Both the position numbers and the translations under genes were made by a program. From a virus (lineage: Duplodnaviria > Caudoviricetes), in IMG/VR virus record IMGVR_UViG_3300010429_001696, positions 96,001-160,000 of that record: a stretch of 64,000 nt of DNA. One strand, given 5' to 3'. Numbering within the stretch: the first letter of the stretch is position 1; every line of letters begins with the position of its first letter. The notes beneath the pieces are model-generated. The model made no database searches. It was not told where the DNA came from and worked only from the letters and a program-made list of their open reading frames with translations. Shown here one piece after another: positions 3,728 through 56,774 of this stretch.

Positions 3728-4615
3728 ATGCCAAAAAGATATACAACTTTCGAATTCATTGAAAAGTCAAAAATGATTCATGGAGACAAATACTTATACG
3801 ATAAATCTTTATATATTGGATCCAAAAATGATATTGTCATTACTTGTAGGATTCATGGAGATTTTACTCAAAAACCATATAATCATTTGAATGGATGTGG
3901 ATGTCAATTATGTGATCCGACAAATATATTAGGAAATGGAAATTTCATTAAAAAATCTAATATGGTTCATAAGAACGCCTATGATTATTCATTGGTCGAA
4001 TATATCAAAAATGATATTAAAGTTAAAATTATATGTAAAATTCATGGAATTTTTGAACAAAAACCTGAGGCTCATTTAAGAGGGCAGGGGTGCCCAAAAT
4101 GTTCTAATAACAATAGAAGAACAACAGAAGATTTTATAATTATATCTAAATCTATACACGGTGATTCATATGATTATGATTTAGTCAATTATGTTAACAA
4201 AAGAACAAAAGTGATTATAAAATGCAAAAAACACGGAGTTTTTGAACAATTACCATATATCCATTTAAAGGGATTTGGTTGTAAATTGTGCCATAATTCA
4301 TCGATGGAAACCCATTTGATGCAAAAATTAAAAAATATGGACATAGATTTCATTAAAGATTTTCGATTTGATGAATGCAGAAACAAATTACCTCTTCCAT
4401 TTGATTTTTATTTACCTGAAAAAAATATTCTAATAGAATGTGATGGAATTCAGCATAGGGAATCAATAAAATACTTTGGAGGTAAAAAAAGATTAGAATA
4501 TCAAAAAATAAATGATAATATAAAAAATGAATTCTGCATGAAAAAGAAACTCAAATTATTGAGATTGAAAAACATAAAAGAAATAGATGATGCTTTTCAC
4601 TCAATAATAATTTAA
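3728..4615 (+). CDS. putative homing endonuclease: DUF723-like zinc-ribbon repeats plus C-terminal PD-(D/E)XK/Vsr-like nuclease
   Basis: Three repeats of YDY..V.Y....KV.I.C..HG.F.Q.P..HL.G.GC..C; C-terminal LPFDFYLP...IECDGIQH. Confidence 0.8.
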   Translation: MPKRYTTFEFIEKSKMIHGDKYLYDKSLYIGSKNDIVITCRIHGDFTQKPYNHLNGCGCQLCDPTNILGNGNFIKKSNMVHKNAYDYSLVEYIKNDIKVKIICKIHGIFEQKPEAHLRGQGCPKCSNNNRRTTEDFIIISKSIHGDSYDYDLVNYVNKRTKVIIKCKKHGVFEQLPYIHLKGFGCKLCHNSSMETHLMQKLKNMDIDFIKDFRFDECRNKLPLPFDFYLPEKNILIECDGIQHRESIKYFGGKKRLEYQKINDNIKNEFCMKKKLKLLRLKNIKEIDDAFHSIII

Positions 4616-4618
4616 TAA

Positions 4619-5362
4619 TTACGAATATGGCTTCAATAAAAAAAATGATTTTTTAATTCTTCTCCAAAAAATTTCTGGATTTATTATTTCGTCTTTTGTT
4701 GGCGGGGGGATTTCGACCAACAATTCTAATCCTCTTTTGACGCCAAAAGAATCAAAAAAATCTTTTAAAAATAACGCCGAATATTCATAACAATAATATT
4801 TATCATCCAATTCTTCAATTGTTTTTGGAGTTTTCATACGTTTATCTATTATAGTTTCTCCCATAGCATTTGAAATATATTCACAAAATCCTTCTTCAAT
4901 AAATCCTTTTCCATAATTCTTTTTAGAAAGATATCCATTATCAATATACTTATTTTTTAACTTCATTTCTGAAATTATCTGGTTGAAATAAATATGAGAT
5001 ATCTCGTGTATAACAACAGATTTGACAAACTTATTAGATGATAATATTTCTCTTTTTTCTGTTTTTGAAAGATTGCCCAACTCACAAGCCAAATATTTTT
5101 CTTCGTTTGATATAGTTATATTATTTGGATATTCAAAAACTCCCATTTCTGACAAAAAATAATCTTCTCTCTGGCTGAGATCATCAACATAAATATAGAT
5201 GTCATAATCTATTGTATCTCTTACAAATGTTTGAAATTCATTTAAAATGGACTCAAATTTTCTGTATGTATAATTTCCTATCATATCTTTTGTCGGCGAT
5301 AATTGACAAAAAGATGAAAGGGTCAAAAATAAAAATAATAAAAATAAAATTCTTTTTAACAT
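4619..5362 (-). CDS. secreted zincin-like metalloprotease candidate
   Basis: Hydrophobic signal-like N-terminus; HEISH followed by EEGFCEY (gluzincin-like third ligand). Confidence 0.55.
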   Translation of the reverse strand: MLKRILFLLFLFLTLSSFCQLSPTKDMIGNYTYRKFESILNEFQTFVRDTIDYDIYIYVDDLSQREDYFLSEMGVFEYPNNITISNEEKYLACELGNLSKTEKREILSSNKFVKSVVIHEISHIYFNQIISEMKLKNKYIDNGYLSKKNYGKGFIEEGFCEYISNAMGETIIDKRMKTPKTIEELDDKYYCYEYSALFLKDFFDSFGVKRGLELLVEIPPPTKDEIINPEIFWRRIKKSFFLLKPYS

Positions 5363-5404
5363 AATAGCAAATATATAAATAAAATATCTAAATAAAAAAT
5401 TCTA

Positions 5405-5785
5405 TTAAAACCAATTTTCTTCTCCCCAAGGATCGTCTTCTAAATTTACTTTTCTCTTTGGTAATTCAAATTTAACTTTTCTGATCTCCGAAAAATACAT
5501 AATATTGAGAGAACTGTTTCCATCTTCACAAGTTTTTGTGTTAACATAATAATCAGATAAATAATAAATAATAAGCCCCAATACTTCATTTATTGCCCAA
5601 TTGGTGGCAAAAAATAAATGTGATGGTATGCTATCAAATTGAACGAAACAATTAGTAAAATTTTTATTCAGATAATCTAACGTGAGCTCCAGTCCATCCA
5701 CATAAATCATTTTTTTATATTCATCATAAGTTAAAATTTTTTCATATTCATCTGAGAACTGCTCGTATAAAAATAATCTTTTCAT
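5405..5785 (-). CDS. hypothetical protein with LYEQF leader and C-terminal EDDPWGEENW tag
   Basis: MKRLFLYEQF start; ends KVNLEDDPWGEENWF. Confidence 0.7.
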   Translation of the reverse strand: MKRLFLYEQFSDEYEKILTYDEYKKMIYVDGLELTLDYLNKNFTNCFVQFDSIPSHLFFATNWAINEVLGLIIYYLSDYYVNTKTCEDGNSSLNIMYFSEIRKVKFELPKRKVNLEDDPWGEENWF

Positions 5786-5869
5786 AATATGTTTATATAT
5801 TAATTTTTTACCTTTAAAAAATGGAAAAAATGATATTTTTATATTAATATATAAAGATAAAAAGATAAT

Positions 5870-6019
5870 ATGAAAAGTAAAAATTTGAAAATCTCTGATG
5901 AATTACACAAAAAAATAAAAATTATTTGTGCTTCACACGAATTAAAAATAAATGAATGGGTCGAATCTGTTTTAAAAGAAAAAATTAATAAGATAGAAAA
6001 TGAAAAAGTTAAACAATGA
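5870..6019 (+). CDS. small ribbon-helix-helix-like DNA-binding protein (49 aa, not in ORF track)
   Basis: Manual translation MKSKNLKISDELHKKIKIICASHELKINEWVESVLKEKINK...; AATATATA box upstream. Confidence 0.55.
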   Translation: MKSKNLKISDELHKKIKIICASHELKINEWVESVLKEKINKIENEKVKQ

Positions 6020-6508
6020 TGATTTCATTAAAAAATCTATAGATTTATATGGAGATACTTATGATTATTCTTTGGTAAATTATAAGAAATCAAATGAAAA
6101 AGTTAAAATAATATGTAAGAAACATGGAATATTTGAACAAACACCGAACAATCATCTAAGAGGAAGAGGGTGTAATCTTTGTGGAATGGACAATAAGAAA
6201 TTAAACATAGATAAATTTATGAACTACCACTACACTAAAAGATGTGGTGGTTTCTGGAACACGAATGTTCCTTTTTTTTAAGCGCTTCATTTGATTTCTA
6301 TTTGCCAAATCTTAATACATGTATTGAATTTGATGGCCAACAACATTATAATATAATAGAACATTTTGGTGGAGAAAAAATTCTAATAGAAAATCAAGTA
6401 AGAGATGATATAAAGAACAAATATTGCTTAGAAAACAATATAAAAATATTGAGGATAAAATATGATGATGATGTAGAGAATAAAATGAAGAGTATTTTTA
6501 AACAATAG
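6000..6508 (+). pseudogene. disrupted DUF723-like/PD-(D/E)XK endonuclease
   Basis: One zinc-ribbon repeat (6000-6219) and nuclease C-terminus (FDFYLP..IEFDGQQH) lie in different frames, separated by a 70 bp IS-end fragment; middle repeats missing relative to paralogues. Confidence 0.8.
6220..6289 (-). mobile_element. IS200/IS605-type right-end fragment
   Basis: 70 bp identical to 52206-52275; subterminal hairpin ending GTAGTTCA on the minus strand. Confidence 0.7.
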
Positions 6509-6532
6509 TTTTTTTCATTTATATAAAAATTC

Positions 6533-8158
6533 ATGATAAAAATAAATGACAATCTCAATATATATTTTCCATTAAATCTAAAACCAAGAGAACAACAAAT
6601 AGAGGCTTTGGGACTATTAAAAAAAACTATAAATTCTGGAAAAAAATATTGTTTATTGAACGCTCCAACTGGTTCTGGCAAAAGTTATCTTACAATTATG
6701 ATAGCCAATTGGTATCGTAATTATGTGAATAATTCGGCTAAAATAGATATTATAACAAATTCAAAAATATTACAAGAACAATATAAAAAAGAATATGATT
6801 TCATAAATGATCTTAGAGGACAATCTAATTATAAATGTCATCATCATAAAACAGATTGTCATACAGGAAAAGAATTAAATAAATCTCTAAAACATGTGTG
6901 TCTGTCTTGCCCGTATGATATAGCAAAGAGAAAATGGGTAGAAGGGGATTTGTCATTAACCAATTTTCATTTATTCAATAGTTTTATTTTTTATGTTCCA
7001 GACACAATAAAAGAAAGAAATTCCAACTTGTTGATCGTCGACGAGTCACACGAAATAGAAATGACCTTCTGCGACTTCATTTCAACCAAACTCAGTGCTA
7101 AGATATTTCGAAATTATGGCATGGAAGAAATCAATGTTGAAAATTTTGAAAAAGACATACTAAGAATAACCACAACTGGCCAATTTATAAGTTTTATTGA
7201 AAGAAAATTTCTGCCATTTATAACTGATTTAAAATATAATTTTGAAGAACTTGTCTCAGACTCAGAAGAAGATAAAATCAAAGAAATATATGCTAAATAT
7301 GTGATATACATAGAATCATCTATAGAAAGATTTGAAAAATTAATAAAGGATTTTAATGAAAATAGCGACAACTGGGCACTTGACACAACGAGAGATAAAG
7401 TTGGTAATATAGAATTAATTCTACAACCAATATGGGGCAAAGATTATTTGAAAAAACTGGTTTATGATTATTATGATCATGTCATATTTATGTCAGCTTC
7501 TATATTAGATAAGGATATTTTTTCCTATGTGAATGGATTGGATCCAGATTTAACAGATTATTATGAAATCGATTCCACTTTTAATATCGAGAATAGAAAG
7601 ATATATTACATACCTTGTGGTAAAATGAATTATCAAAGTAAGAGAGAAACATTTGATAAACAGATAAATATGATAAAAAAAATCTTGAAGAAATATAAAA
7701 ATGATAAAGGCATTATACACACAACAAATTATGAAATAACAGATTGGTTAAAAAAATCAATAGATAGTAAGCGATTTATATTTCATGACACAGAGAATAG
7801 AGAAAAGATGTTAGAAAAACATTTAAAAAGTAAGACTCCATCTGTTATGGTAAGCCCTTCGATGATGAGTGGATTAGACTTGAAAGATGAACTATCGAGA
7901 TTTCAAATAATATTAAAAATTCCCTATCCAAATTTGGCATCCAATAAAATTAAATCCAGAAAAGAATCCAATCCAGATTCATATACTTTAAAAACGTGTC
8001 AAGATCTCATACAAGCTTATGGCAGAAGTGTCCGCTCTTCGGATGATTATGCTGAAACATACATACTGGACTCTAATTTTCAGGATCTATTGAGATATAG
8101 CTATAAATTTTTACCTCATTGGTTCACTAGTGCTATTACGAGATTGAATTCAAATTAG
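6533..8158 (+). CDS. DinG/Rad3-family SF2 helicase
   Basis: Q motif PREQQ, APTGSGKS, Cys cluster, DESH, SAS, GLDLKD, QAYGRSVRS. Confidence 0.85.
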   Translation: MIKINDNLNIYFPLNLKPREQQIEALGLLKKTINSGKKYCLLNAPTGSGKSYLTIMIANWYRNYVNNSAKIDIITNSKILQEQYKKEYDFINDLRGQSNYKCHHHKTDCHTGKELNKSLKHVCLSCPYDIAKRKWVEGDLSLTNFHLFNSFIFYVPDTIKERNSNLLIVDESHEIEMTFCDFISTKLSAKIFRNYGMEEINVENFEKDILRITTTGQFISFIERKFLPFITDLKYNFEELVSDSEEDKIKEIYAKYVIYIESSIERFEKLIKDFNENSDNWALDTTRDKVGNIELILQPIWGKDYLKKLVYDYYDHVIFMSASILDKDIFSYVNGLDPDLTDYYEIDSTFNIENRKIYYIPCGKMNYQSKRETFDKQINMIKKILKKYKNDKGIIHTTNYEITDWLKKSIDSKRFIFHDTENREKMLEKHLKSKTPSVMVSPSMMSGLDLKDELSRFQIILKIPYPNLASNKIKSRKESNPDSYTLKTCQDLIQAYGRSVRSSDDYAETYILDSNFQDLLRYSYKFLPHWFTSAITRLNSN

Positions 8159-8530
8159 ATATCTTCTCCTCTAAATATAGCGTTTATTTCATTATTCATT
8201 TCAAATGACTCCAACCATTCTCTGAATTCTGTTTTTAATTCATCAAATTCATCATAATCTCCTATTTCAAGAAACGCATCAATAAAATGGTCCAAATTTG
8301 AATAATCATAATTATTATTCGTGAGAAGATCAATCAAAAGTCCTCTAGCTCTTAAAACTGATTCACGAAATTCTATCATTAAATCATCTACTTCAGCATA
8401 TCCATAATAATCATCTAAAGGCAGAATTACATCATCATCTGATTCTTGATTTGGTTTTTTCTTCAATACCAAAAAGTTCTTCTTCGGAAAAGTCTTCTAA
8501 ATCAAATTGTTCGTAAGTTTTTATTATCAT
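8155..8530 (-). pseudogene. frameshifted tagged protein (MIIKTYEQFDLEDFSEEELFG...)
   Basis: ATG at 8530 gives the leader and tag, then stops; the body (8155-8472) is in another frame; removing one A from the A6 run at 8455-8460 joins them. Confidence 0.6.
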
Positions 8531-8745
8531 TTATTACGAATCTTCTTTTTTAAAAATTATTTTACTATAGTCATTGATTATATCTTCTATAACCTCGGGC
8601 GTGAATATTTTTTCAATATTATTTTTTTCATCTTCTTTTTCATTTAATTTCAGATCATCTTCTTTCTCAATTTTCGTTAAAGTTTTTGACATAGTAATTA
8701 ATTTTTTTTTGTTTTTTATTATATTTTAAAAAATTTGTTTAGAAT

Positions 8746-9105
8746 TTATATTTCAAAATTTAAATTTTTTATTTCTTCTCTGATTTTATTGGGTACATCT
8801 TTTTTGAGCCATGTATCAAATGCTCTTCTTTTTGTATTAAAAATGTATATCATATCATTATCTTTCAATTCATCAAAGCTTAATAATGAAGATGATTTTA
8901 TTTTACTGATACAACGATTTAAACTATCCCAATTATAGTCATTGTATATATATACCCAATCTCCCCTTGTTTCAAGGGGATAATAGCGACCGTTATCATA
9001 TATCATCATATCCATCATCATATTCCTTTTTATTTCTTTACCAAAAAGTTCTTCATCCGACAGGTCTTCGAAATCATATTGCTCGTATAGTTTCAAATGG
9101 TTCAT
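8746..9105 (-). CDS. hypothetical protein with LKLYEQ leader and DFEDLSDEELFG tag
   Basis: MNHLKLYEQYDFEDLSDEELFG; ATGA overlap with the LRR gene. Confidence 0.7.
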   Translation of the reverse strand: MNHLKLYEQYDFEDLSDEELFGKEIKRNMMMDMMIYDNGRYYPLETRGDWVYIYNDYNWDSLNRCISKIKSSSLLSFDELKDNDMIYIFNTKRRAFDTWLKKDVPNKIREEIKNLNFEI

Positions 9106-9722
9106 ATAATATATTTAATACTTTTTTCTATACAATAATTTCTTAAATAATTTTTATATTCATCAGAGAAAGAATTATTAGAACAATCTAACACTTTAAG
9201 ATTTATCAAGTTCTCTATTCCCTCGAGACTGGTCAGAGAATTATTAAAGCAAAATAACTCTTTAAGATTTATCAAGTTTTCTATTCCATCGAGACTAACG
9301 AGAGAATTATCAAAACAATCTAACCATTCAAGATTTACCAGGTTCTCTATTCCCTCAAGACTGGTGAGATAATTATTATAACAACATAACTCTTTAAGAT
9401 TTATCAAGTTTTCTATTCCATCGAGACTAACAAGAGAATTATTAAAGCAATGTAACTCTTTAAGATTTATCAAGTTTTCTATTCCATCGAGACTAACGAG
9501 AGAATTATCAAAACAATCTAACCATTCAAGATTTACCAGGTTCTCTATTCCCTCAAGACTGGTGAGATAATTATTGGTGCAATCAATTCTCTTTATGGCC
9601 AGTGGATCTTCATCTCCATATTTATCTCTGAACCACTCCCCAAATGTATATTCTCTTGGAGTATCTTCTCCCCAAGGATCATCTTTTAATTCAAATTGCT
9701 CGTATAGTTTCAAATGCTTCAT
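9102..9722 (-). CDS. leucine-rich repeat protein (22-aa internalin/SDS22-like repeats)
   Basis: About 7 repeats of LxxLxCxxNxLxSLxGIENLxN; leader MKHLKLYEQF plus DDPWGED. Confidence 0.9.
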   Translation of the reverse strand: MKHLKLYEQFELKDDPWGEDTPREYTFGEWFRDKYGDEDPLAIKRIDCTNNYLTSLEGIENLVNLEWLDCFDNSLVSLDGIENLINLKELHCFNNSLVSLDGIENLINLKELCCYNNYLTSLEGIENLVNLEWLDCFDNSLVSLDGIENLINLKELFCFNNSLTSLEGIENLINLKVLDCSNNSFSDEYKNYLRNYCIEKSIKYII

Positions 9723-9742
9723 TCACTTTCTATATATAAATA

Positions 9743-9776
9743 AAAAAAACCAGAAAATTTATCTGGCTTTTTTTTC
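9743..9776 (-). terminator. intrinsic terminator after dnaK
   Basis: CCAGA..TCTGG stem flanked by A and T tracts. Confidence 0.6.
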
Positions 9777-9801
9777 AATTTTATTTATTTAGTTAAACAT
9801 T

Positions 9802-11103
9802 TTATTTAACTTCTTCATATTGAACATCTTCCACATCTGGCTGCTCTTTCGGACCTTCATATTCTTGCCCTTTTGCTGTTTCAGTTTTTGATTGCTCGTA
9901 TAATTTTGTTGATATACGATTCCAAGTTTCTGTCAGCTCACTTGTATATTTATCCACACTTGTTAAGTCTTGATTCTTATGGGATTCTTTTAATTTGTCC
10001 ACAACAGAATTCAGCTCGGATTTATCGCTTTCATTTAACTTATCGCCGAAATCTTTAATTTGTTTTTCAGTTTGGAATATTAAAGCATCAGCTTGATTCA
10101 ATTTATCTATTTTTTCTTTTTCCTTTTTATCAGCAGCCTCATTCATCTTTGCCTCATTTTTCATTTTTTCAATTTCATCTTTTGACAATGATGTTGAACC
10201 TTCTATTCTAATAGATTTTTCTTTGCCTGTGCCTTTATCTATAGCTTTTACGACCAATATACCATTAGAATCTATTGTGAATGATATATCTATTTGAGGT
10301 ATTCCTCTTGGAGCTGGTGGTATGTTATCCAAATTAAATTGTCCAAGAACTTTATTGTCTTTCATCATAGCTCTTTCACCTTGTCCAACAACAATAGATA
10401 CGCTTGGTTGATTATCAGCGGCTGTTGAGAAGACTTGTGTTTTGGTTACTGGAATGGTTGTATCAGAATCAATCATTTTTGTGAAAACATTACCGAGTGT
10501 TTCTAGTCCGACTGATATTCCTAACACATCCAAAAGAAGTATATCTGTTTTTCCGCCTGTGAGTATATGTCCTTGAATGGATGCCCCCATAGCGACACAA
10601 AGATCAGGATTCAAACTCTTATTTGGTTTTTTTCCAAAAAGTTTCTCCAATTTATCTTGAACCATAGGTATACGTGAGCTACCACCAACCAACATGATGT
10701 CATCAATTTCACCGTAGTTCAATTTTGATTTAGCCATTGAAGATTTGGCCTTTTCTATTGTTTGATTAATAATTGGACCAGCAATTTGTTCGAATTTAGC
10801 CCGTGATATTGTTTGAACCAAATGTTTTGGAGCATTATCAATAGCTGTGATATAAGGGAGATTTATTTCAGCTTGTGTTTGACTAGATAACTCGATTTTT
10901 GCCTTTTCACAAGCTTCAAATAATCTTTGTAATGCCATTGGATCTTTTCTTACATCAAATCCAACTTCTTTTTTGAATTCTTCAGCTACATAATTAACCA
11001 ATAATTCATCTATTACTGAGCCACCAAGATCTAAATCTCCATCTGTTGATAATATTTCAAAGACACCATCACCAACATCGACTATTGAAACATCTAAAGT
11101 TTG
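9802..11103 (-). CDS. dnaK: DnaK/Hsp70, exon 2
   Basis: Frame open upstream of ORF 9802..11001: QTLDVSIVDVGDGVFEILSTDGDLDLGG; LVGGSSRIP, DVLLLDV-like linker, STAADNQ, PPAPRGIPQI. Confidence 0.9.
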   Translation of the reverse strand, partial: QTLDVSIVDVGDGVFEILSTDGDLDLGGSVIDELLVNYVAEEFKKEVGFDVRKDPMALQRLFEACEKAKIELSSQTQAEINLPYITAIDNAPKHLVQTISRAKFEQIAGPIINQTIEKAKSSMAKSKLNYGEIDDIMLVGGSSRIPMVQDKLEKLFGKKPNKSLNPDLCVAMGASIQGHILTGGKTDILLLDVLGISVGLETLGNVFTKMIDSDTTIPVTKTQVFSTAADNQPSVSIVVGQGERAMMKDNKVLGQFNLDNIPPAPRGIPQIDISFTIDSNGILVVKAIDKGTGKEKSIRIEGSTSLSKDEIEKMKNEAKMNEAADKKEKEKIDKLNQADALIFQTEKQIKDFGDKLNESDKSELNSVVDKLKESHKNQDLTSVDKYTSELTETWNRISTKLYEQSKTETAKGQEYEGPKEQPDVEDVQYEEVK

Positions 11104-32236: not shown

Positions 32237-32342
32237 TAAAAACTATGGACGAATTTGAAAAAAGAAAACAAGACCTCATTAATAACTTAGATAATATGTT
32301 ACGAAATGAAGACTGGAGCGAACCAGATGAACTCGGATGGCG

Positions 32343-32469
32343 CGTTTTGCAGATTGCCGAAGGTGGCGATTTAGAATCAGGAACTTTCAATAAAGTAATA
32401 AATTATGATACAAGGCACGAACTTCAATTTTAGCACTACACCGCCACTTTTGGCAATGTGCTGTTATAC
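32343..32469 (-). repeat. attC-like site 1
   Basis: Arms gcagattgccgaaggtggcg (32349-32368) and cgccacttttggcaatgtgc (32442-32461) are 17/20 complementary; GTTATAC at 32463. Confidence 0.7.
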
Positions 32470-32510
32470 GCTGTTTTTTCTTTGTGTCCTTAAAAATTAA
32501 AACAAAAAAC

Positions 32511-33029
32511 ATGAGTTTATTAGAACAGAAAAAAGATTTTAGTAAAAGAGGTGCGTTTGACGAACTATACACACCCGAAGAAGCGGTTGAAATGATACTG
32601 AAATACATACCAAAGGAAGTAAAAACAATTTGGGAATGTACCGCAATTAAAGAAAGTAAGATTGTAGAAGTATTGAAAGATGCTGGATATACTGTAATTA
32701 CATCACATATTGAAGATGGACAGGATTTTTTCAAATATGAACCTGAAAATTATGATATGATAATTACAAACCCACCTTATTCATTAAAAGATAAATTTTT
32801 GAAACGTGCTTATGATTTGAAAAAACCTTTTATGTTTTTACTTCCTTTGACTACATTAGAAGGTATTGAACGAGGAAAGATGTTTGATAAAAATGGTATT
32901 CAAATGCTAATACCGAATAAACGTTTTAATTTTAAACCTGAAAAGAATAGTGGTGCGTGGTTTCAAACATCTTGGTTTTGCTTCGGGTGTGGATTAAGTT
33001 CGGATTTGAACTTTGTGTCCTTAAAATAG
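32511..33029 (+). CDS. small adenine-specific methyltransferase carried on a cassette
   Basis: DELYTP, IWEC, GQDFF, ITNPPYS; ATG at 32511. Confidence 0.8.
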   Translation: MSLLEQKKDFSKRGAFDELYTPEEAVEMILKYIPKEVKTIWECTAIKESKIVEVLKDAGYTVITSHIEDGQDFFKYEPENYDMIITNPPYSLKDKFLKRAYDLKKPFMFLLPLTTLEGIERGKMFDKNGIQMLIPNKRFNFKPEKNSGAWFQTSWFCFGCGLSSDLNFVSLK

Positions 33030-33030
33030 C

Positions 33031-33159
33031 GTATAACGGCTGGGTGTATATGTAGTGTGAGATTTGAAACACTAAATTTGACTTAACCACAAATATTGAT
33101 TAGAATGATGAACTCCAATATACCACTAAACCTCACATTACATATACACCTTGTTATAC
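33031..33159 (-). repeat. attC-like site 2 (129 bp)
   Basis: GTATAAC...GTTATAC ends; arms ggtgtatatgtagtgtgag and ctcacattacatatacacc are 18/19 complementary. Confidence 0.8.
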
Positions 33160-33268
33160 ACAGTACGGTTTATTAAGGTAGAATGTTGATACGAATAAAG
33201 AATAAAAACTTTTTAAAAATGTGTGGTGGAAAATTTAATTTCAAATATTTATATATAAAGTAAAAATT

Positions 33269-33577
33269 ATGAGTAAAGAAATGCGAGAACAAATAAATAA
33301 GGTTAAGAATTGGAAACAGTTTTTGAATGAACAAATTGAAACTACTATAGTTGCAAACATAAGATATGCTGATGATAAAACAGAATTAGAACCACTTACA
33401 AAAAAAGGTATTTTATATGTAAAAAGACATGGCGATACAAAAACTGCATATTATAAATTGAATTATAATGATGTAGATAAATATGGATATGCAACATTAG
33501 GTGATGAAATACCAGAAAGTTTTTTTAAAAATAAAAACGTTCAATTTATAAATTCGCAATATTATAAGGAAGCGTAG
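33269..33577 (+). CDS. cassette-borne hypothetical protein with KNWKQFLNE motif
   Basis: 102 aa; own TATATATA box at ~33249; flanked by GTTATACACAGTAC and GTATTGTGTATAAC. Confidence 0.7.
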   Translation: MSKEMREQINKVKNWKQFLNEQIETTIVANIRYADDKTELEPLTKKGILYVKRHGDTKTAYYKLNYNDVDKYGYATLGDEIPESFFKNKNVQFINSQYYKEA

Positions 33578-34335
33578 GGAAATTTTTAAAAAGTTTTTAC
33601 ACAGAACTTAATTTGAAACACGAATGTAGTATTGTGTATAACTACCGGCTATCCTCAATTACGTTTAATTAAGTTGAACTAATTATTAAAAGACTTAAAC
33701 AATGCGAACACAATATATTGGTTGTAGTAAATATGGAACAGCAGTAATGCCAAAAGAAGATGTTCTTTCATTTGTAGAAATTACTGTTAATAATGGCTCT
33801 GATATAGCTGAAGCTTTAGCCGATATGCGAATGATAGATGCCCTTCTTTCGGAATTATTAACTTAAAAACAAACATAAAATGTCAGAAATAAAACAAACA
33901 GCAGTAGAATGGTTCTACGATAAAATTAAAAGCCACTTTGAACATGATGGCGATTTATTGGAAACGCTAACATTTACAATGGCAATAACGGGCTCATACA
34001 TCAAGTAACAGATGATGAATTTATGATAACAAAACTTGGTAAAGAATTCGCTAAACACGACCACGTTATAGACGAGCTGAAAGCAGCCAAAGGAGTGTAT
34101 GTTTGTGGCACATGTGGTCAAAAAATGGATATTAAATGAAATTAAATTTAAAAAATATGAAAGATTTAAAAAAGAAAGAAAAGTTCAATATTTTTCTATG
34201 GAGCATCTTTGATAGAAAGAAATATCTGGAATATGATAAATTTTTGAAACTTGGATTAACAAAAAGAGCTGTATATTTTCATGTGAAAAATAGTATAAAA
34301 TAAAATATTATTAACTTGTAAAAACTAAAAAAACT

Positions 34336-55319: not shown

Positions 55320-55548
55320 GATGGTTCATTTTATTTAGCTAAAATAAATATCCTAGATATGAATTTACAAATAAATCGATTCAAATAATGAATATGTTTA
55401 GTGATTGCTTAAAATATTATAATATTGAACATAAAATTAGAACAAGAAAAAATGGTGTTATGGACATATTCATCCAATCAAGAAAAAAGGTAAATTTTTT
55501 ATATTCAATTTTGAATGAAAAATATAAAATGAAAAGATGGAAATTTTG
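55320..55548 (+). pseudogene. LAGLIDADG-like endonuclease remnant
   Basis: DGSFYLA / NKYPRYEFTNKSIQIMNMFSDCL with a frameshift at ~55340, no N-terminal half. Confidence 0.5.
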
Positions 55549-55635
55549 TGCCGAAGACGGGAGTCGAACCCGTATGCTCACCTGAGCACGGCTTTTTAAG
55601 AGCCGCATGTATACCACAAATTCCATCACTTCGGC
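55549..55635 (-). tRNA. tRNA-Leu(TAA)
   Basis: GCCGAAG/CTTCGGC acceptor, CGGCT-CTTAAAA-AGCCG anticodon arm, long variable arm, GGTTCGA, discriminator A. Confidence 0.9.
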
Positions 55636-55909
55636 ATTTAATTTTTTTCAAAGAACTTCTTTTATATAATAGAAAATATTAATAGTTTATATATTTTTGA
55701 AATAACGACATAATTTAAAGACATCTCCTTCTTTAAAATCATATCTTTTTCTTGTATCACAAGCAACATCCCCAACCATACCATAATATCCAAAACATTT
55801 TTCTATTTCATGTTTAGAAAGCGAGCAATTGTCGTTTATGCCGTTCAATCTTTCATCCAATGTGTGTTTTTTATTATCCATTTTTAATTGTTTTATTATT
55901 TTTCATTTG

Positions 55910-55993
55910 TGCCCTTGATAGGATTCGAACCTACATATTCTTGCGAACGCGACATCCTAAGTGTCGTATGTCTCCCAGTTTCATCACAAGGGC
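55910..55993 (-). tRNA. tRNA-Leu(TAG)
   Basis: GCCCTTG/CAAGGGC acceptor, CGACA-CTTAGGA-TGTCG, long variable arm. Confidence 0.9.
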
Positions 55994-56001
55994 GATTTTT
56001 G

Positions 56002-56086
56002 TGCCGAAAAAAGGACTCGAACCTTCATGCCCTTCAAGAGCGCATCATTTTGAGTGATGTTTGTCTACCAATTCCAACATTTCGGC
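56002..56086 (-). tRNA. tRNA-Leu(CAA)
   Basis: GCCGAAA/TTTCGGC acceptor, CATCA-CTCAAAA-TGATG, long variable arm. Confidence 0.9.
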
Positions 56087-56690
56087 TTATTTTTTATTCA
56101 TTTTTAATTTTTTTATAACAGAATAAATAGTATTACTATTTATCTTTAACATTCTTGATATTTCAATAGATTTTAATCCTTTATTATATAAATCCTTTAC
56201 CGCTTCGTAATCAATTCTATATTCCTTATTTATATTTAACTCTTTAATTATTTCTGATATTGTGCTTTTTGAACAATTAAAAAATGTAGATATTTCTTTT
56301 TGATTCATACCATTTTCATACATTTTTTTGACTTCGTTTCTATTAATTTTTTGAGATAATCTTTTTAAATTATTGGATTTCAAAATTATTTCTTCTTTAT
56401 TTTTTTCAAAAAAATCTAAATCGGAATGTTCTTCAGTATGGCAATTGTTACATAATATTATACATTTATCTAGCTCTTCCATTATATAGTCTTTAATTAT
56501 ATCTGTATTTGAATTTCTACATCCACCTATTCCTTTAATTTTATCTCTAATATGATGAAATGATAAAGAATCATTAGATTTATTATAACCACATTTTTCA
56601 CAAGATTGACTATTTTTATATTTTAAAAATAATTTTTTAGATTCTTTATAAATAGTTTCTTCTTTTGAAGAATGAATCTCACTATGGAAT
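56087..56690 (-). pseudogene. N-terminally truncated HNH endonuclease with C-terminal HTH repeats, inside the tRNA cluster
   Basis: Frame open upstream of 56482: CEKCGYNKSNDSLSFHH...ELDKCIILCNNCHTEEH; no ATG before the HNH motif. Confidence 0.65.
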
Positions 56691-56699
56691 GATTCGATG

Positions 56700-56774
56700 T
56701 GTCCTAGGTGGTATTCGAAACCACACCTGTATACCCCCTCAAGATATCGCCTCTACCAATTGGGCTACTAGGAC
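56700..56774 (-). tRNA. tRNA with GAG (Leu) anticodon, short variable loop
   Basis: GTCCTAG/CTAGGAC acceptor, ATATC-TTGAGGG-GGTAT anticodon arm, GTGGT-TTCGAAT-ACCAC T arm; 75 nt. Confidence 0.8.

Follow-up and report, generated by a model that had tools for sequence, protein, structure and literature searches.

A probable pair of orphaned integron-type cassettes in a large phage genome, and related site arrays adjoining short Xer-like tyrosine recombinases

The integrons of bacterial chromosomes have been portrayed as banks that store genes for defence against phages and, to our knowledge, integrons are taken to depend on a helix specific to their integrase IntI, termed I2, and to be nearly absent from the Bacteroidota. 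Phages of the T4 type reportedly harbor mobile regulatory cassettes, the PeSL of Arbiol et al. in 2010, in which conserved sequence repeats are thought to act through homology. Classical IntI proteins need the I2 segment to process the folded attC site, and recombination of single strands is believed to have become possible through this segment (PMC7790495, PMC4792948); IntegronFinder 2.0 reports only In0 and one Salinibacter integron for the Bacteroidetes (PMC9024848). The closest described case is that of Qi et al. 2023 (PMC9892861), who found virulent phages to contain attC clusters that lack an integrase (CALIN) and carry methyltransferase genes as cargo. Here we analyze a comparable locus in a 64,000-nt window of phage DNA (bases 96001-160000 of the 193,754-bp IMG/VR virus record IMGVR_UViG_3300010429_001696), in which positions 32343-33642 hold two units, each made up of an imperfect hairpin of about 130 nt, a GTTA-type core, an open reading frame (ORF) and a matching TAAC-type core.

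We interpret this pair as integron-type cassettes whose sites belong to a family found in arrays next to short Xer-like tyrosine recombinases, the two cassettes being orphaned in the present genome, and we put the probability of this reading at roughly 80%. The genome (193.7 kb, about 28% G+C, CheckV completeness 92%) carries the pair within a series of small + strand ORFs at about 32-34 kb of the window. Coordinates are window positions unless a contig is named, and the parts of the locus are the following.

32337-32343, + strand: decayed left core (R'') of site 1, reading ..GGCGC against ..GTAAC at the homologous site of contig L027; homology between the window and L027 begins directly after it.
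32344-32462, + strand: hairpin of site 1 (pal-1), with a 5-nt spacer (32344-32348), arms at 32349-32368 and 32442-32461, and a 1-nt spacer (32462).
32463-32477, + strand: start core (R') of the methyltransferase cassette, complementary to 33023-33037 (inverted repeat of 18 nt, 89%).
32511 (ATG) to 33027-33029 (stop), + strand: cargo 1, a 172-aa DNA methyltransferase of the N6-adenine type (PHROG 799, DNA methyltransferase, 3e-38).
33023-33037, + strand: end core (R'') of the methyltransferase cassette; the homology of 13 contigs ends at 33036-33038, and the L027 match at 33038.
33031-33159, + strand: site 2, attC-like (pal-2), with core 33031-33037, a 5-nt spacer, arms at 33043-33065 and 33128-33150, a 2-nt spacer and core 33153-33159.
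33153-33166, + strand: start core of cassette 2 (14 nt), complementary at 13 of 14 positions to 33629-33642.
33269-33577, + strand: cargo 2, a 102-aa ORF of unassigned function lying between the 14-nt core pair.
33629-33642, + strand: end core of cassette 2, which closes the cluster on the right and at which homology with contigs L020 and L021 ends.

A reading of this region from its sequence, hereafter the original prediction, had proposed four cores flanking the methyltransferase and 102-aa ORFs and an asymmetric palindrome ahead of each gene, and all of these are present. The core pair flanking the methyltransferase ORF includes 9 nt, GTTATACGC at 32463-32471 and GCGTATAAC at 33029-33037, that are complementary at all nine positions. 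Pal-2 has arms of 23 nt with 91% complementarity, folds as DNA with a z-score of -3.6 relative to shuffled sequences and is, at 33043-33150, the longest inverted repeat in the genome that is not composed of A and T only. Pal-1, most of which lies in the 3' end of an ORF at 32245-32433, is weaker on its own (z -1.5), and its score of 96 bits under the covariance model used here (R1, trained on 13 phage and bacterial sites) is that of a training member. Pal-2, on the other hand, was left out of the training of R1, and a search of the 193.7-kb genome with this model returns the two window sites only, pal-2 scoring 67.6 bits (E 5e-13). The two palindromes are therefore relatives, and not unrelated in sequence as had been stated. 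The site family shares with attC sites the invariant TAAC and GTTA, the covarying stems and the unequal spacers, the asymmetry of the arms being borne out by five unpaired nucleotides after TAAC on the left and one or two before GTTA on the right. The cores had further been assigned to the consensus GTTRRRY/RYYYAAC, which holds for the invariant TAAC/GTTA, while the window heptamers GTATAAC and GTTATAC depart from it at one position. With two sites (32337-32469 and 33031-33159, as delimited by R1), one of them with a decayed core, and no recombinase nearby, the pair has the composition of a CALIN.

One alternative is that these are chance inverted repeats in an AT-rich intergenic region, and the genome itself provides some grounds for it. 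Many inverted repeats of similar length occur in the region, single core pairs are at chance frequency (22 matched 9-mer pairs in this AT-rich genome against about 25 in shuffles) and the heptamer GTTATAC shows no genome-wide enrichment. A loose hairpin scanner proved non-specific when used alone, with 18 hits in the genome and about 46 in shuffles; its results were trusted only within arrays or jointly with R1. Since core pairs occur at chance frequency, the case rests on their arrangement and on comparison with other DNA, and the comparative evidence as a whole refutes chance, which we regard as a practically negligible explanation. Nine copies of GTTATACC were also observed within 7 kb outside the window, at 163.5-170.8 kb of the record (G000); this motif cluster at 163-171 kb was rejected as a codon repeat within the repetitive coding sequence of tail-type genes, and is unrelated to the cassette cores.

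The arrangement is best seen in the arrays formed by the same site family in other contigs. In 55 of 69 cassettes from 14 such arrays, the 7-mer GTTA core at the start is the exact reverse complement of the TAAC core at the end; permuting the pairings gives 4.8 such matches on average and 14 at most, whereas the two cores of one single site match in only 4 of 81 cases. The use of core pairs as the mark of a cassette, as originally suggested, is thus upheld as a rule of the family, but not for a single 9-mer pair, which does not exceed chance. The proposal that the sites are defined by structure is also sustained: an alignment of nine pal-1-related sites reveals compensatory double changes in 13 of 23 stem pairs, and their conserved G-T wobbles are compatible with pairing of the + strand only. 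Of 84 phage sites, 78 fold better on the strand bearing TAAC plus about 5 nt (p 2e-14; the mean difference is -2.75 kcal/mol). A left spacer of 5 nt is found in 53 of the 84 and a right spacer of 1-2 nt in 74, and the R box formed by the paired cores extends with two G-T pairs, beyond which three nucleotides bulge out. The same strand folds better in 23 of 26 sites of bacterial arrays, even though it is there antisense to the genes. Since the bias is kept in this antisense setting, it is the site, and not the mRNA, to which the constraint is tied, and this speaks for DNA as the substrate.

These results bear directly on the possibility that the hairpins, lying between early genes, act at the RNA level, for example in processing of the RNase III type, in termination or in the regulation of translation, and that the gene modules are shuffled by ordinary homologous recombination at short common sequences, a scheme put forward for PeSL cassettes. 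In the phage it is the + strand that is transcribed, and its folding is favoured by the conserved wobbles; several hairpin arms lie inside ORFs or 5' leaders. However, an RNA function does not account for a strand bias that persists antisense to bacterial genes, the stem sequences are not conserved and hence offer no homology for recombination, and the breakpoints described below fall at 4-nt cores. Such a function likewise explains neither the core-matching rule nor the constant association with a tyrosine recombinase and a conserved junction. No Rfam match and no terminator-like T run was found at the hairpins; in the Rfam search of the genome only tRNAs passed the gathering thresholds, the hairpins yielding meaningless noise of the miRNA-hairpin kind, and a scan for sigma-70 promoters and terminators gave nothing informative at the hairpins. 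We therefore hold an RNA-based explanation to be quite unlikely.

Comparison of the methyltransferase cassette with its homologues provides the boundaries of the mobile unit. Homologues of the gene are present in 17 other viral contigs (69-97% identity) and in two contigs from metagenome-assembled genomes (81-98%), one of a Flavobacterium and one of a Crocinitomicaceae. In blastn comparisons with the window, homology begins at 32462-32465 in five contigs by one count and eight by another, and stops at 33036-33038 in thirteen; outside 32462-33038 these contigs show no relationship to the window or, for the most part, to one another. That homology between contigs ends at the cores agrees with the integron-cassette reading advanced originally. 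Contig L027 shares both hairpin and gene (32343-33038, 95.7% over 698 nt), and the two limits of this match lie just after TAAC. At 32339-32343, where the 96%-identical L027 copy has GTAAC, the window reads GGCGC and the ORF at 32245-32433 runs through the decayed core; the last 30 or so codons of this 62-aa ORF are apparently owed to the loss of the TAA stop within the TAAC core, and in L027 the upstream ORF terminates within the intact core. More distant copies of the methyltransferase (in L008, L011-L016 and L018) lack the cores, from which it follows that the gene exists outside cassettes too. In cassette 2, the start core is followed by a conserved leader, and an inner 18-nt repeat at 33203-33220 pairs with 33582-33599. 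Only this leader, homologous to that of cassettes in L020 (within G001), L021, L022 and L023, and the last 60 nt, ending exactly at 33642, are conserved elsewhere, while the interior of the ORF differs.

Two side observations concern these boundaries. An exact 16-nt direct repeat (32480-32495, in the leader, and 33011-33026, in the last codons) brackets the methyltransferase ORF; both copies are retained in most other contigs, and the homology of L004 begins at the repeat, which may provide for accessory binding or for recombination at a secondary position. Moreover, L022, a more distant phage relative, shares at 3801-4490 the upstream 165-aa ORF and only the right half of pal-2, followed by a cassette with the same leader, another core triplet and a 140-aa ORF, so that it presents a truncated site in a related backbone.

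The presence of inverted repeats of 9-18 nt around each gene would also suit a non-autonomous transposon, akin to a miniature inverted-repeat transposable element with cargo, mobilized by a transposase acting in trans on terminal inverted repeats. Yet no target-site duplication was detected in the six insertion contexts compared, the repeats differ between cassettes except for 4 nt, and the arrays are linked to a tyrosine recombinase; transposases of the IS200/IS605 type and serine recombinases are absent from the genome. A transposon of this kind is, in our view, only very remotely probable.

Large phage contigs contain arrays of this site family with up to about 20 cassettes, and the gene of the tyrosine recombinase lies directly downstream of them. 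In the contig that holds L020 (G001), at least 14-16 sites in a single orientation extend over 5.2 kb (3740-8944), between + strand ORFs of 49-170 aa, and are followed on the same strand by a 60-aa ORF and by a 267-aa tyrosine recombinase (9208-10011; PF00589, 126 bits). Homologues of this recombinase, with 60-71% identity, occur in nine further viral contigs (L034-L037, L045, L091, L114, L115 and L118), and each of the nine lies 30-50 nt past a junction in which a final TAAC core is fused to a conserved AT-rich motif. This TAAC core matches the last GTTA core of the array, and the junction is a candidate attI analogue, here termed attI-like. When used as a search key, the attI-like pattern returned mostly AT-rich noise, with five real loci among the first 80. 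Sites or arrays precede the recombinase in seven of the nine contigs, the hairpin scanner finding no sites upstream of it in L091 and L115. Arrays adjoining homologous recombinases have few cassettes in common and arrange them in a different order.

The 267-aa recombinase is colinear with the archaeal XerA and aligns to IntI4 in two pieces, skipping residues 198-261. Because it is Xer-like and lacks the IntI-specific insertion, the system must be regarded as integron-like and not as a strict integron. This relatedness also lends substance to the view that the units are double-stranded modules of the Xer/dif type, like the pdif modules of Acinetobacter plasmids, recognized as duplex two-arm sites for which folding is unneeded. 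The recombinase is indeed Xer-like and devoid of the I2 helix, the cores resemble a XerC half-site, and genes and hairpins, as separate units, take alternate places between inverted cores and reassort on their own. Nevertheless, there is no conserved second arm at a fixed distance of 6-8 bp; the adjoining stem varies freely and covaries with a partner 50-200 nt away, and duplex recognition does not predict strand-specific wobble pairs. The sites do not match the definition of a pdif/Xer module (28-bp duplex sites in alternating orientation, with two conserved arms around a 6-bp spacer), as only a single core of 4-7 nt is conserved. We thus consider duplex modules of this type unlikely, and integron-type cassettes remain the preferred reading.

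The cargo of the phage arrays includes at least five methyltransferases of three families (N6/N4 and MT-A70 among those seen), together with a Tad6-type Thoeris inhibitor and an ART-PolyVal ADP-ribosyltransferase (L036 6211-6843 and L030 7485-7994; Pfam, 4.6e-41 for the inhibitor), and suggests a counter-defence role. Some array ORFs have an unusual relationship with their sites. At 5661-6884 of L030 (G001), several of them begin in the hairpin loop, with the right stem arm and the GTTA core in frame, and encode a motif ..LNI(P/L)xV.. followed by a CxxC zinc ribbon; if strands crossed over at such an in-frame core, C-terminal domains would be exchanged behind a common N-terminal leader. Ten of the 84 phage sites are minimal, with 54-55 nt (in L005, L006, L030, L035, L037 and L026), and have an identical 11-nt loop, TCGTTTTAATG, on unrelated stems; the same 11-nt filler is found between the GTTA and TAAC cores of units without a gene.

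Outside phages, homologues of the recombinase (35-49% identity, E <= 1e-35) are present in 116 of 401 sampled Flavobacteriales genomes, and three of the five homologues scanned pass the NCBIfam model for 'site-specific tyrosine recombinase/integron integrase'. The original prediction had called for a new site model to be run on phage and Bacteroidota genomes; R1, besides both window sites, detects arrays in 57 of 151 sampled Flavobacteriales genomes, adjoining the recombinase homologues. Several of them hold arrays of at least 20 sites that end at the gene of a recombinase without I2 (for instance G011:C12 207-228 kb, G111:C1 115-147 kb and G067:C1 913-927 kb). Chromosomal arrays and phage cassettes have the site family and the matching of cores in common, but they differ in the orientation of their ORFs. 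In bacterial arrays (e.g. G011:C12 and G282:C26) the ORFs are encoded on the strand that does not fold, as in classical cassettes, and the recombinase may be either divergent or co-directional. In phage platforms the layout of recombinase, junction and sites is classical, but every ORF lies on the folding strand and reads toward the recombinase. The inference that the window genes are reversed with respect to classical cassettes is consequently supported, their ORFs having the opposite polarity to those in bacterial arrays of the same site family.

Taken together, these data are compatible with the following mechanism. Read along the + strand, a cassette would comprise one C, the hairpin, the GTTA-type core, the ORF and the complementary core up to its TAA. 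Folding of a site would take place in its + strand, with the TAAC and GTTA cores pairing as an R box and a 3-nt bulge preceding the variable stem, and the recombinase would exchange strands at TAA|C, which in the methyltransferase cassette places the putative crossover between 33036 and 33037. The cassette would leave as a circle whose own two cores form a perfect R box, and this circle would re-enter at an attI-like site or at another hairpin. As regards the circle, its predicted junctions fold better than the array sites (-33.5 vs -27.1 and -28.7 vs -25.2 kcal/mol), and circularizing each window cassette gives a longer continuous hairpin than that of the array site.

Several observations weigh against the integron-type reading, and account for the reserve with which we hold it. 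Recombination was not observed directly, and some 50 residues of IntI4, the I2 region among them, have no counterpart in the recombinase. Breakpoints are found at both cores, and hairpins and gene units also reassort separately, which a strict one-strand integron model does not predict; breakpoints at both cores imply that either both strands are usable or the mechanism is unlike the classical one. Polaribacter phage P12002L carries two sites of the same family, as judged by their geometry, the 11-nt loop filler and the matched cores around methyltransferase genes, and one of them is P12002L_attC1, which had been called by HattCI and was the only tested site to yield no recombinants under IntI1 (PMC9892861). 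As to the locus itself, the original prediction had noted that the window lacks an integrase and had recommended looking for a tyrosine recombinase elsewhere; no homologue of the array recombinase was found anywhere in the 92%-complete genome, and the sole tyrosine-recombinase-like ORF, about 100 kb away, is distant and unrelated. The left core is decayed, no attI-like sequence was found at the pair, and past the last core there is neither an attI-like sequence nor a further site, the segment 33575-33720 having no hairpin (z about 0). Finally, the region is 100% identical wherever this phage was assembled, which is in at least six samples.

No empty-site or alternative-cassette alleles were found in two metagenome pattern scans, in which records of or near this genome may have been left out; no close relatives were found in IMG/VR through the neighbouring 403-aa ATPase, and look-ups of exact proteins yielded nothing but identical copies of this phage. 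The pair shows no sign of present activity and is probably a fixed relic, best read as cassettes acquired from a host array or from a phage with a platform and fixed thereafter. With regard to its cargo, the methyltransferase has a weak Eco57I-type Pfam match that contains the NPPY motif and is an orphan with no restriction partner, and may plausibly have a role in anti-restriction, while Pfam and PHROG searches gave no match for the 102-aa product of cassette 2. Elsewhere in the window, on the - strand at 55548-56774, lies a cluster of four tRNA-Leu genes with anticodons taa, tag, caa and gag.

In a broader frame, we lean towards regarding the pair as stray cargo of an undescribed integron-like system of Flavobacteriales and large phages, based on a recombinase without I2, in which phage arrays with reversed ORFs would serve as exchangeable banks of counter-defence genes (several DNA methyltransferases, the Thoeris inhibitor and the ADP-ribosyltransferase) and cassettes would pass among host arrays, platform phages and phages without integrase. 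Our literature search retrieved no paper on a cognate recombinase devoid of I2, on phage platforms, on reversed ORFs or on Flavobacteriales arrays. The contribution of the window to this picture is that cassettes reach phages without the machinery and become fixed there, a route by which methyltransferase and accessory genes may spread among unrelated phages, and the system can be tested with the standard recombination assay based on conjugative delivery.

Among known systems, PeSL cassettes resemble the present ones in consisting of small accessory ORFs flanked by stem-loops, situated in hyperplastic regions of large phages and shuffled between genomes, but in the present family conservation is limited to structure and 4-nt cores, and the arrays are associated with a dedicated recombinase. 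The similarity is greater with the CALIN phages, which like this phage have attC-like sites around single ORFs, no integron integrase and methyltransferase cargo. That study made use of generic attC predictors and IntI1, and described no cognate recombinase, array platform or reversed ORFs (PMC9892861). With classical integrons (IntI1/attI1/attC; VchIntIA, PDB 2a3v) the family has in common arrays of single ORFs, hairpins with AAC/GTT cores and an asymmetric bulge, a start core that complements the end core of its own cassette, a recombinase beside a conserved first junction and one strand that folds preferentially. It departs from them in that the recombinase is without the I2 region, the phage ORFs are on the folding strand, breakpoints occur at both cores and the window is without a recombinase; an integrase of the IntI clade with I2, an attI in the window and ORFs on the top strand reading away from attI, which define strict integrons, are all lacking. 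The sites, the arrays and the I2-less recombinase suggest that hairpin-cassette recombination evolved, or persists, without I2, possibly from a second origin, and the phage arrays may mirror the bacterial banks of defence genes as cassette banks of counter-defence genes.

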